A DNA stretch of 64,000 bases from assembly GCF_030384885.1 (NCBI RefSeq), contig NZ_CP128613.1; one strand, written 5' to 3'. Made by a program: the position numbers. Below, piece by piece: positions 48,401 to 51,400 of the stretch (the stretch's first letter is position 1; each line of letters starts with the position of its first letter). This DNA comes from Escherichia coli. Its GTDB lineage: Bacteria > Pseudomonadota > Gammaproteobacteria > Enterobacterales > Enterobacteriaceae.

Positions 48401-51400
48401 AGCGTTCAATTAAATGCGGGGAGTCTGCCACATCGACCTGAACCCAGACCGATGCTGGCATTGGCGGACGCGGACGCGCCGTCGTGCGCTTCATCACGAT
48501 TAAAAGATCCAGTTCGGCACCTTTCAACGGTAACGTTGATTCAATCAGAGTGATGGCATTCCATGAACCGGAAAGCAGCATGATAAACGTGAACTCTTCT
48601 CCCAGCATTGCCAGGCGACTGTCTTCGATATTACAGCCGCAACTACTGACATGACGGGTGATGGTGTTCACAATTCCAGGGCGATCGGCACCCAACGCAG
48701 TGATCACCAGATAATGTTGCGATGACAGTGTCAAACTGGTTATTCCTTTAAGGGGTGAGTTGTTCTTAAGGAAAGCATAAAAAAAACATGCATACAACAA
48801 TCAGAACGGTTCTGTCTGCTTGCTTTTAATGCCTTACCAAACGTACCATTGAGACACTTGTTTGCACAGAGGATGGCCCATGTTCACGGGAAGTATTGTC
48901 GCGATTGTTACTCCGATGGATGAAAAAGGTAATGTCTGTCGGGCTAGCTTGAAAAAACTGATTGATTATCATGTCGCCAGCGGTACTTCGGCGATCGTTT
49001 CTGTTGGCACCACTGGCGAGTCCGCTACCTTAAATCATGACGAACATGCTGAAGTGGTGATGATGACGCTGGAGCTGGCTGACGGGCGCATTCCGGTGAT
49101 TGCCGGGACCGGCGCTAACGCTACTGCGGAAGCCATTAGCCTGACGCAGCGCTTCAATGACAGTGGTATCGTCGGCTGTCTGACGGTAACCCCTTACTAT
49201 AATCGTCCGTCGCAAGAAGGTTTGTATCAGCATTTCAAAGCCATCGCTGAACATACTGACCTGCCGCAAATTCTGTATAATGTGCCGTCCCGTACTGGTT
49301 GCGATCTGCTCCCGGAAACGGTGGGCCGTCTGGCGAAAGTAAAAAATATTATCGGAATCAAAGAGGCTACAGGGAACTTAACGCGTGTAAACCAGATCAA
49401 AGAGCTGGTTTCAGATGATTTTGTTCTGCTGAGCGGCGATGATGCGAGCGCGCTGGACTTCATGCAATTAGGCGGTCATGGGGTTATTTCCGTTACGGCT
49501 AACGTCGCAGCGCGTGATATGGCCCAGATGTGCAAACTGGCGGCAGAAGGGCATTTTGCCGAGGCACGCGTTATTAATCAGCGTCTGATGCCATTACACA
49601 ACAAACTATTTGTCGAACCCAATCCAATCCCGGTGAAATGGGCATGTAAGGAATTGGGTCTTGTGGCGACCGATACGCTGCGCCTGCCAATGACTCCAAT
49701 CACCGACAGTGGTCGTGAGACGGTCAGAGCGGCGCTTAAGCATGCCGGTTTGCTGTAAAGTTTAGGGAGATTTGATGGCTTACTCTGTTCAAAAGTCGCG
49801 CCTGGCAAAGGTTGCGGGTGTTTCGCTTGTTTTATTACTCGCAGCCTGTAGTTCTGACTCACGCTATAAGCGTCAGGTCAGTGGTGATGAAGCCTACCTG
49901 GAAGCAGCACCGCTTGCGGAGCTTCATGCCCCGGCTGGAATGATTTTGCCGGTGACCTCCGGTGATTATGCAATCCCGGTGACCAACGGTAGTGGTGCTG
50001 TCGGTAAGGCGCTGGATATTCGTCCACCAGCCCAGCCGCTGGCACTGGTTTCTGGCGCGCGTACCCAGTTCACGGGCGATACCGCTTCATTGCTGGTGGA
50101 AAATGGTCGTGGCAATACTCTGTGGCCGCAGGTGGTTAGCGTGCTGCAGGCGAAAAACTACACCATCACCCAACGTGATGATGCGGGTCAGACGCTGACC
50201 ACCGATTGGGTACAATGGAACCGTCTGGACGAAGACGAGCAGTATCGTGGTCGTTATCAAATCTCTGTTAAGCCGCAGGGTTATCAGCAGGCGGTTACGG
50301 TTAAACTGCTGAACCTGGAACAGGCGGGCAAACCGGTTGCAGACGCGGCTTCCATGCAGCGTTACAGCACGGAGATGATGAACGTTATTTCCGCCGGTCT
50401 GGATAAATCTGCCACTGACGCCGCGAACGCTGCGCAAAATCGTGCCTCCACCACTATGGACGTACAAAGTGCAGCTGATGACACCGGTTTACCGATGCTG
50501 GTCGTACGCGGGCCGTTCAATGTGGTTTGGCAACGTCTGCCAGCGGCGCTGGAAAAAGTGGGCATGAAAGTGACCGACAGCACCCGTTCGCAGGGCAACA
50601 TGGCCGTAACTTACAAGCCGCTGTCTGACAGCGACTGGCAGGAACTGGGCGCGAGCGATCCAGGCCTGGCATCCGGTGACTATAAACTGCAGGTTGGCGA
50701 TTTAGATAACCGCAGCAGCCTACAGTTCATCGATCCGAAAGGTCATACTCTGACTCAGAGTCAGAACGACGCGCTGGTAGCTGTCTTCCAGGCTGCGTTT
50801 AGCAAGTAAAAATACAGGGCTGGAGTCATCCGGCCCTTTTTTCTGATATGATACGCAAACGTGTGCGTCGGCAGAAAAATGCGATTTTAGCGGTAATTCG
50901 CACGAAATTTGTTTGTCGGACGTAGGTCGGATAAGGCGTTCTTGCCGCATCCGACAAAACATCTGGCACATCAGACAGCAAAAGATTTTAAAACGTTAAT
51001 TCACACCCAGGAGTGATAAAGATGCAAAAGCAAGCTGAGTTGTATCGTGGTAAAGCGAAAACCGTATACAGCACGGAAAACCCGGACCTGTTGGTGCTCG
51101 AATTCCGCAATGATACGTCAGCAGGGGATGGCGCGCGCATTGAGCAGTTTGATCGCAAAGGTATGGTGAACAACAAGTTCAACTACTTCATTATGAGCAA
51201 ACTGGCTGAAGCGGGTATCCCGACTCAAATGGAGCGTCTGCTCTCCGATACCGAATGTCTGGTGAAAAAGCTGGATATGGTGCCGGTTGAGTGTGTCGTG
51301 CGTAACCGTGCTGCTGGCTCTCTGGTGAAACGTCTTGGAATCGAAGAAGGTATTGAGCTGAACCCGCCGCTGTTCGATCTGTTCCTGAAAAACGACGCCA

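Follow-up and report, generated by a model that had tools for sequence, protein, structure and literature searches.

The Escherichia purC control region: a PurR operator at the transcription start and a REP element in the leader

REP elements of the Y type (PU elements) are imperfect palindromes of about 35 nt that begin with a 5' GTAG, occur in many copies and lie outside genes. Their roles in stabilizing mRNA and in modulating translation have been described for 3'-UTR and intercistronic positions, and binding of gyrase, IHF and Pol I has been reported for REP/BIME clusters. REP-like hairpins also make up naRNA4 (RF02564), a REP325-derived nucleoid-associated RNA. Known stabilizers that protect an mRNA from its 5' side sit at the extreme 5' end.

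The promoter and operator of purC in E. coli K-12 were reportedly described in 1990 by He et al. and by Tiedeman et al.; neither this promoter, nor its PurR site, nor REP elements in general are new. At purB and purR, PurR halts elongating RNA polymerase from a site within the transcribed or coding sequence (He and Zalkin 1992, cited in PMC3159470). The purC operator serves the same repressor and is of the same 16-bp type; however, the purB and purR boxes lie well inside the transcribed or coding region, whereas the purC box spans -6 to +10 and would compete with initiation.

Here we describe the purC locus in a 64-kb stretch of E. coli DNA (the window), which repeats the K-12 arrangement and in which a REP element lies between the PurR operator and the start codon. 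Unlike a typical REP/BIME, this REP is a single unit in a 5' leader, and a literature search found no report of a REP in the purC leader. The locus is very probably an ordinary E. coli purC control region, in which a PurR site covers the transcription start and the REP is carried as a tolerated passenger in a 163-nt leader. The coordinates of its features are collected in Table 1.

Table 1. Features of the bamC-purC region, in positions of the window
Feature	Coordinates	Strand	Remarks
bamC (nlpB) ORF	49772-50809	+	TAA stop codon 50807-50809; precedes purC in E. coli genome annotation
bamC intrinsic terminator	50816-50843	+	9-bp G+C-rich stem 50816-50837, then T6 run
purC -35 region	about 50823-50829	+	inside bamC terminator stem; best match to TTGACA 3/6
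purC extended -10, TGaTATGAT	50844-50852	+	hexamer TATGAT 50847-50852; TG at -15/-14; hexamer ends 7 nt before the start site
PurR operator (pur box) ACGCAAACGTGTGCGT	50853-50868		-6 to +10 relative to the start site; begins 169 nt before the purC ATG (51022)
purC transcription start (A)	50859	+	third A of the pur box; transferred from K-12 (Kim et al. 2012)
Leader segment, copy A CAGAAAAATGCGATTTTAGCGGTAATTCGCAC	50871-50903	+	adjoins the operator; locally aligned with copy B
Single Y-type REP palindrome	50912-50958	+	leader +54 to +100; GTAG 50922-50925; core hairpin 50926-50955 (arms 50926-50937/50944-50955); outer stem arms 50912-50920/50950-50958
Leader segment, copy B CAGCAAAAGATTTTAAAACGTTAATTCACAC	50975-51006	+	adjoins the ribosome-binding site; continues into the conserved ...CACACCCAGGAGT of short-leader relatives
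Shine-Dalgarno AGGAG	51009-51013	+	8 nt before the purC ATG; read from the sequence; conserved across relatives
purC CDS (SAICAR synthase)	51022-51735	+	237 aa + stop; ATG agrees with K-12 annotation

Promoter, transcription start and PurR operator

The genes on the plus strand run dapA, bamC, purC, ypfJ, tmcA. The stretch from 50700 to 51100 is 100% identical to E. coli strain 2013C-4282 and has matches in 5425 of 5426 complete genomes, and the PurC protein of the window is 100% identical to that of E. coli and E. albertii. Aligned with the intergenic region of K-12 (261 columns, 96% mean column identity), the window carries no indels and only a few base substitutions, among them two in the REP loop, which reads TT here and AC in K-12, and one in the 5' arm of the REP; the pur box, the extended -10, the position of the REP and the Shine-Dalgarno (SD) sequence are identical in this same locus of K-12.

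The intrinsic terminator of bamC, a hairpin of -17 kcal/mol (z = -3.7) that was also recovered by a terminator scan, immediately precedes the purC promoter, and its stem-loop and T-run are kept in every enterobacterial relative aligned. A strict two-hexamer scan found no promoter at the purC extended -10, because no good -35 accompanies it; E. albertii, Citrobacter and Pseudocitrobacter have the same -10 hexamer.

Table S1 of the genome-wide K-12 map of Kim et al. 2012 (PMC3415461, PLoS Genet) lists one purC start site, at NC_000913.2 2,595,803 on the minus strand, with a 5' UTR of 163 nt, and the sequence given there as "-50 nt upstream + TSS" ends ...TGATATGATACGCAAA / ...TTTTTTCTGATATGATACGCAAA. 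This start corresponds to window position 50859, because the window does not differ from K-12 anywhere between the -10 and the end of the box, and the position is consistent with 51022 minus 163. The assignment comes from a single high-throughput data set, obtained with 24 reads under limited growth conditions in a strain other than that of the window; among the entries listed in Cappable-seq supplements, the K-12 coordinate of the purC start was absent.

The pur box ACGCAAACGTGTGCGT, a 16-bp imperfect palindrome with the central CG, shares 15 of its 16 positions with the palindromic PurR consensus ACGCAAACGTTTGCGT. Searching the whole window with at most two mismatches returned two sites, against 0.05 expected by chance, the second being the purM operator (27492-27507). 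PurR occupancy was detected by ChIP-chip in K-12 at both purC and purM, on the same motifs as in the window (Cho et al. 2011, PMC3159470); the purC motif reported there, ACGCACACGTTTGCGT, is the same site on the opposite strand, with a log2 enrichment of 2.08 in the presence of adenine. Of the 30 Enterobacteriaceae loci tabulated, 27 carry the identical 16-mer, across at least 12 named genera and with both flanks variable, and the box lies where an operator of a purine gene is expected, at the promoter and early transcribed region. The first-pass annotation had placed the pur box at its exact coordinates and the purC ATG at the position given by K-12 annotation, 169 nt downstream of the start of the box. 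The layout that it described, a PurR box and then a REP in the transcribed leader, also agrees with the K-12 start, which falls inside the pur box, upstream of the REP and not downstream of it.

These positions outline how purC would be controlled. Transcription would start at 50859 from the extended -10, with the -35 region buried in the bamC terminator, and PurR carrying hypoxanthine or guanine would cover the start site together with the downstream end of the -10, such that initiation fails. Since the pur box spans -6 to +10, the geometry points to promoter occlusion, and not to an elongation roadblock, as the most likely form of PurR repression at purC. The earlier suggestion that the REP palindrome could affect road-blocking by the repressor does not hold up against this geometry, in which the REP has no part in repression; road-blocking is what purB shows, not purC.

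Alternatively, most purC mRNA might arise from a second promoter located 3' of the REP and ahead of the ATG; the functional leader would then begin downstream of the REP, with the pur box acting at a distance or as a roadblock to transcripts from upstream. The A+T-rich stretch at 50975-51000 does contain weak -10-like hexamers, such as TTAATT, and the start-site table covers a limited set of growth conditions. However, the sole purC start listed by Kim et al. 2012 lies inside the box, the promoter scan was empty downstream of the REP, and the homologous stretch in short-leader relatives is just the gap of about 35 nt that separates box from SD, which would have left no room for such a promoter ancestrally. 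We therefore regard a second promoter as extremely improbable, and retain initiation within the box, under occlusion by PurR, as the working description of the locus.

A single REP in the transcribed leader

The REP-like palindrome that the first-pass annotation had seen between the box and the ATG, at 50915-50956, proved to be a genuine REP with slightly wider limits (50912-50958). Of the 34 positions in the segment GTAGGTCGGATAAGGCGTTCTTGCCGCATCCGAC (50922-50955), 30, the 5' GTAG among them, agree with what we take to be the Y-type REP consensus, and the RNA hairpin is predicted at -20.4 kcal/mol (z = -3.0). It departs from Y-type elements at the outermost stem pairs, where both arms carry T-A in place of C-G. 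A search of the window for the core pattern GGATAAGGCGTTNNNGCCGCATCC gave two occurrences, with 0 expected by chance; as an independent check, the 24-nt core recurs in a Y REP at 55631-55654, inside a BIME at 55580-55660. Like other REPs, the element is extragenic, lying between the bamC stop codon (50809) and the purC ATG.

The repeated part of the leader is confined to the palindrome. A 114-nt query containing the REP found a median of 20 matching places per E. coli genome, and a stray match on a plasmid covers 50921-50957 only (query positions 82-118), which is the repeated part; the 40 nt to the right of the REP are single-copy in E. coli genomes. The idea that the whole 102-nt insert is a repeated mobile element was rejected on these grounds, the right flank being single-copy in 5425 genomes.

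Two related identities were also considered and set aside. The element is not a BIME, as only one REP is present in 50810-51021, compared with the Y and Z pair at 55580-55660. Nor does it belong to naRNA4: the two share hairpin sequence and structure, and Rfam returned a partial RF02564 match (31.6 bits, E = 0.0012), but this score falls below the gathering threshold of 59.5 bits and covers one hairpin of a two-hairpin model.

The single-unit structure also bears on whether the REP might act as DNA, as a gyrase, IHF or HU site that buffers supercoiling or insulates the purC promoter where the bamC terminator and purC transcription converge. In favour of this, the element lies 60 bp downstream of the purC promoter, which itself adjoins a terminator, and REP/BIME clusters are known for binding gyrase, IHF and Pol I; however, such activities are described for BIMEs, with inverted REP pairs and specific linkers, and the purC element is a single REP without a partner. 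This makes a DNA-level role very unlikely, and the passenger reading is preferred here as well.

At the level of RNA, the terminator scan of the same strand of the leader region recovered the bamC terminator alone, and with no terminator between the start site and the REP, we infer that the REP is transcribed. The purC mRNA would then carry a 163-nt untranslated leader in which nucleotides +54 to +100 form a Y-type REP, with a hairpin of about -20 kcal/mol.

Expansion of the leader in Escherichia

For the comparison with relatives, 80 purC loci were retrieved, one genome per species, together with Salmonella, Klebsiella and Cronobacter loci obtained through exact-protein look-ups. In 17 relatives (Citrobacter, Enterobacter, Leclercia, Pseudocitrobacter, Phytobacter, Klebsiella and others) the pur box starts 65-68 nt before the ATG, compared with 168-169 nt in Escherichia (E. 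coli and E. albertii). The promoter, the box and the ribosome-binding site are collinear across genera in the alignment, and about 102 extra nucleotides are found in the middle of the Escherichia leader.

Copies A and B, which form an imperfect direct repeat, flank these nucleotides; they share a 13-nt core repeat at a spacing of 103 nt, and the score of their local alignment was reached in none of 2000 shuffles. The segment is single-copy in Citrobacter, where it reads CAGAAAAACGCAATATTTATCGTTAATTCACAC, and in Klebsiella. Judging by these alignments, the Escherichia leader would be an ancestral leader of about 61 nt in which about 32 nt were duplicated and about 71 nt, including the REP, were inserted between the copies. 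The duplication preserves native sequence both beside the operator and beside the ribosome-binding site.

The Salmonella leader is 62 nt longer and has copy A in common with Escherichia, including the G in TTCGCAC, without the REP core; the expansion would therefore either predate the REP, or the REP would have been lost in Salmonella. In Citrobacter, the expansion either was never present or may have been lost through recombination between the repeats.

Several other genera carry unrelated insertions at the same position of the leader, most of them with a predicted hairpin: Cronobacter, Siccibacter and Shimwellia have small G+C-rich hairpins, and Kluyvera has a structured insert of 64 nt. The 62-nt insert of Salmonella, at the same site, has no notable predicted structure.

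Within E. coli, the 186-nt promoter and leader were found at a coverage of at least 80% in 5425 of 5426 complete genomes (one genome gave no match), and at an identity of at least 95% in 5374 records. The comparison with E. coli strains lacking the REP, which the first-pass annotation had proposed, found no such strain among these 5426 genomes, and the REP-bearing leader is also present in E. albertii. The element does vary: across 11 aligned alleles, substitutions fall in the REP loop and in both arms, with no clean compensation in lineage L004 and in E. albertii, and strain AMSCJX03 has a natural 12-bp deletion directly 3' of the REP. Near-universal retention of the REP is expected under purifying selection, and equally fits an old insertion that is hard to lose.

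Does the REP act on purC mRNA?

A transcribed hairpin retained this widely could be a working post-transcriptional element of the purC mRNA, serving as a barrier or entry point for RNases that alters mRNA half-life, as a processing site, or as a site where proteins such as HU bind, in the manner known for REP-derived naRNAs. Consistent with such a role, the predicted hairpin is stable (-20.4 kcal/mol, z = -3.0); it is transcribed, since the start site lies upstream; almost every E. coli genome has kept it, as has E. albertii; its similarity to naRNA4 extends over half of that model; and the independent insertions at the same leader position in other genera, the majority of which have a predicted hairpin, could point to selection for structure.

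Several observations weigh against it. The hairpin begins 53 nt from the 5' end, unlike known 5' stabilizers; the stem is eroding in some lineages, L004 and E. albertii having changes in both arms that are not cleanly compensated; and the REP is absent from related genera, including Salmonella. The predicted folds also show no contact between the REP and the SD, and the accessibility of the SD is unchanged without the REP insert. Partition-function folding gives the SD a mean unpaired probability of 0.63 in the native leader, compared with 0.65 after in silico removal of 103 nt, with values of 0.45 in Citrobacter and 0.58 in Salmonella. Because SD accessibility is the same with and without the insert, the REP is predicted to fold as an independent module. 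Finally, the 3'-end mapping files consulted from Adams et al. 2021 list no 3' end in the purC leader and do not mention purC. Considering both sides, we judge a post-transcriptional function of the REP unlikely.

Other forms of leader-based control were examined along the whole leader, whose overall fold is unexceptional (z = -1.18). An attenuator or intrinsic terminator at the REP was rejected, as the hairpin is followed by AAAACAUCUGG, with no U-run. A riboswitch or other curated cis-regulatory RNA was likewise rejected for lack of a matching Rfam covariance model; a scan of the leader at E values up to 10 returned only the partial naRNA4/REP match and two chance-level matches. A leader peptide was rejected too, no leader ORF being present in any reading frame, and no Rho-loading composition (rut-like, C-rich and G-poor) was seen, the C/G ratio ranging from 0.6 to 1.2 along the leader.

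Thus, among U-runs, rut-like composition, Rfam models and SD accessibility, none provided sequence evidence for an effect of the REP on purC mRNA. Most likely, the REP is a tolerated passenger with little or no predicted effect on PurR control or on translation, a neutrality that is read from these negative in silico results.

A bolder proposal extends the post-transcriptional idea to the family as a whole. It holds that the REP-bearing expansion of Escherichia is a selected module acting on mRNA half-life or on the recruitment of HU or RNase, and that the position between box and ribosome-binding site is a recurrent landing site for hairpins across enterobacterial lineages, under selection. 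We give this proposal little credence, and keep to the passenger reading. If the REP nevertheless proved to be a post-transcriptional element, Escherichia would have a layer of purC control that is absent from its relatives.

The importance of the locus is small beyond a tidy annotation, and only modestly new is the description of the leader as an Escherichia expansion with a duplicated ancestral segment. The comparison does, however, supply a natural experiment, in which the same promoter, operator and ribosome-binding site are joined to a 61-nt leader in Citrobacter and Klebsiella and to a 163-nt leader in Escherichia; this contrast would allow a clean measure of the effect of a REP in a 5' UTR.

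A second pur box and a BIME in the window

The window holds a further pur box, which by its position in the upp-purM intergenic region and its motif we take to be the purM-purN operator; that operator is given as TCGCAAACGTTTGCTT by Cho et al. 2011 (PMC3159470). Repetitive palindromes also occur elsewhere in the window, where a classic BIME combines a Y-type REP, GCCGGATAAGGCGTTAATGCCGCATCCGGC, with a following Z-type REP, GCCTGATGCGACGCTCACGCGTCTTATCAGGCCTAC. Around the purC operator, the two arms of an 8-nt perfect inverted repeat bracket the -10 element and the pur box, with the centre of the repeat about 2 nt away from the pur-box dyad, and the same repeat is present in Citrobacter.

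Features and their positions in the window
Feature	Position	Strand	Remarks
Second pur box	27492-27507		AAGCAAACGTTTGCGA; 2 mismatches vs palindromic consensus
IS200C insertion point (E. coli MEW)	~50837		corresponding position
Inverted repeat, 8 nt, perfect	50838-50845 / 50872-50879		TTTTTCTG / CAGAAAAA
Homologue of Salmonella TTTAACCGCTATTTC	~50885-50899		
12-bp deletion (E. coli AMSCJX03)	50957-50968		equivalent position
Classic BIME	55580-55660	minus	downstream of coding region

Natural variation in the purC promoter and leader

The purC control region is altered in the E. coli strains MEW and AMSCJX03. In MEW (L083), an IS200C copy (2439-2897 of that locus) sits between the bamC terminator and the extended -10 of purC, such that the -35 region is replaced by IS200C while the -10, the pur box and the leader are all intact. 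Insertions of this type may lie behind part of the roughly 20 genomes with less than 80% coverage, MEW being the one genome examined. AMSCJX03 (L091) naturally lacks 12 bp, AAAACATCTGGC, directly 3' of the REP hairpin, reducing its leader to 151 nt.

No structure is predicted for the short ancestral purC leaders. Between the pur box and the SD, at the same position as the Escherichia insert, unrelated insertions 20-64 nt long were found in Kluyvera (L019), Cronobacter (L087), Siccibacter (L032), Shimwellia (L031), Enterobacter sp. BIGb0383 (L022) and Salmonella (L084), several of them containing a small G+C-rich hairpin (in Cronobacter, GGCCGCgcgaGCGGTC). ChIP-seq in Salmonella placed a MarA/RamA peak at purC with a weak motif, GAAATAGCGGTTAAA (p = 7.9e-4; PMC10268841), which is the reverse complement of the stretch TTTAACCGCTATTTC of the Salmonella leader, inside copy A, the leader segment adjoining the operator.

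Position of the -10-like hexamer relative to the operator

By consensus matching, the side of the invariant pur box on which a good -10-like hexamer lies differs between genera. The hexamer abuts the box upstream (TATGAT, TATAGT or TAAGAT) in Escherichia, Citrobacter, Klebsiella, Kluyvera, Pluralibacter and Salmonella (loci L003, L008-L012, L019, L021, L084 and L086), and lies 2-5 nt downstream of it (CATAAT, TAGAAT, TAAAAT or GATAAT) in Enterobacter, Leclercia, Phytobacter and Pseudescherichia (L005, L006, L013, L015-L018, L022, L026 and L027). If real, this difference, seen in consensus matches only, would mean that the purC promoter has shifted across a fixed operator, taking the box from a position over +1 to one within the spacer.
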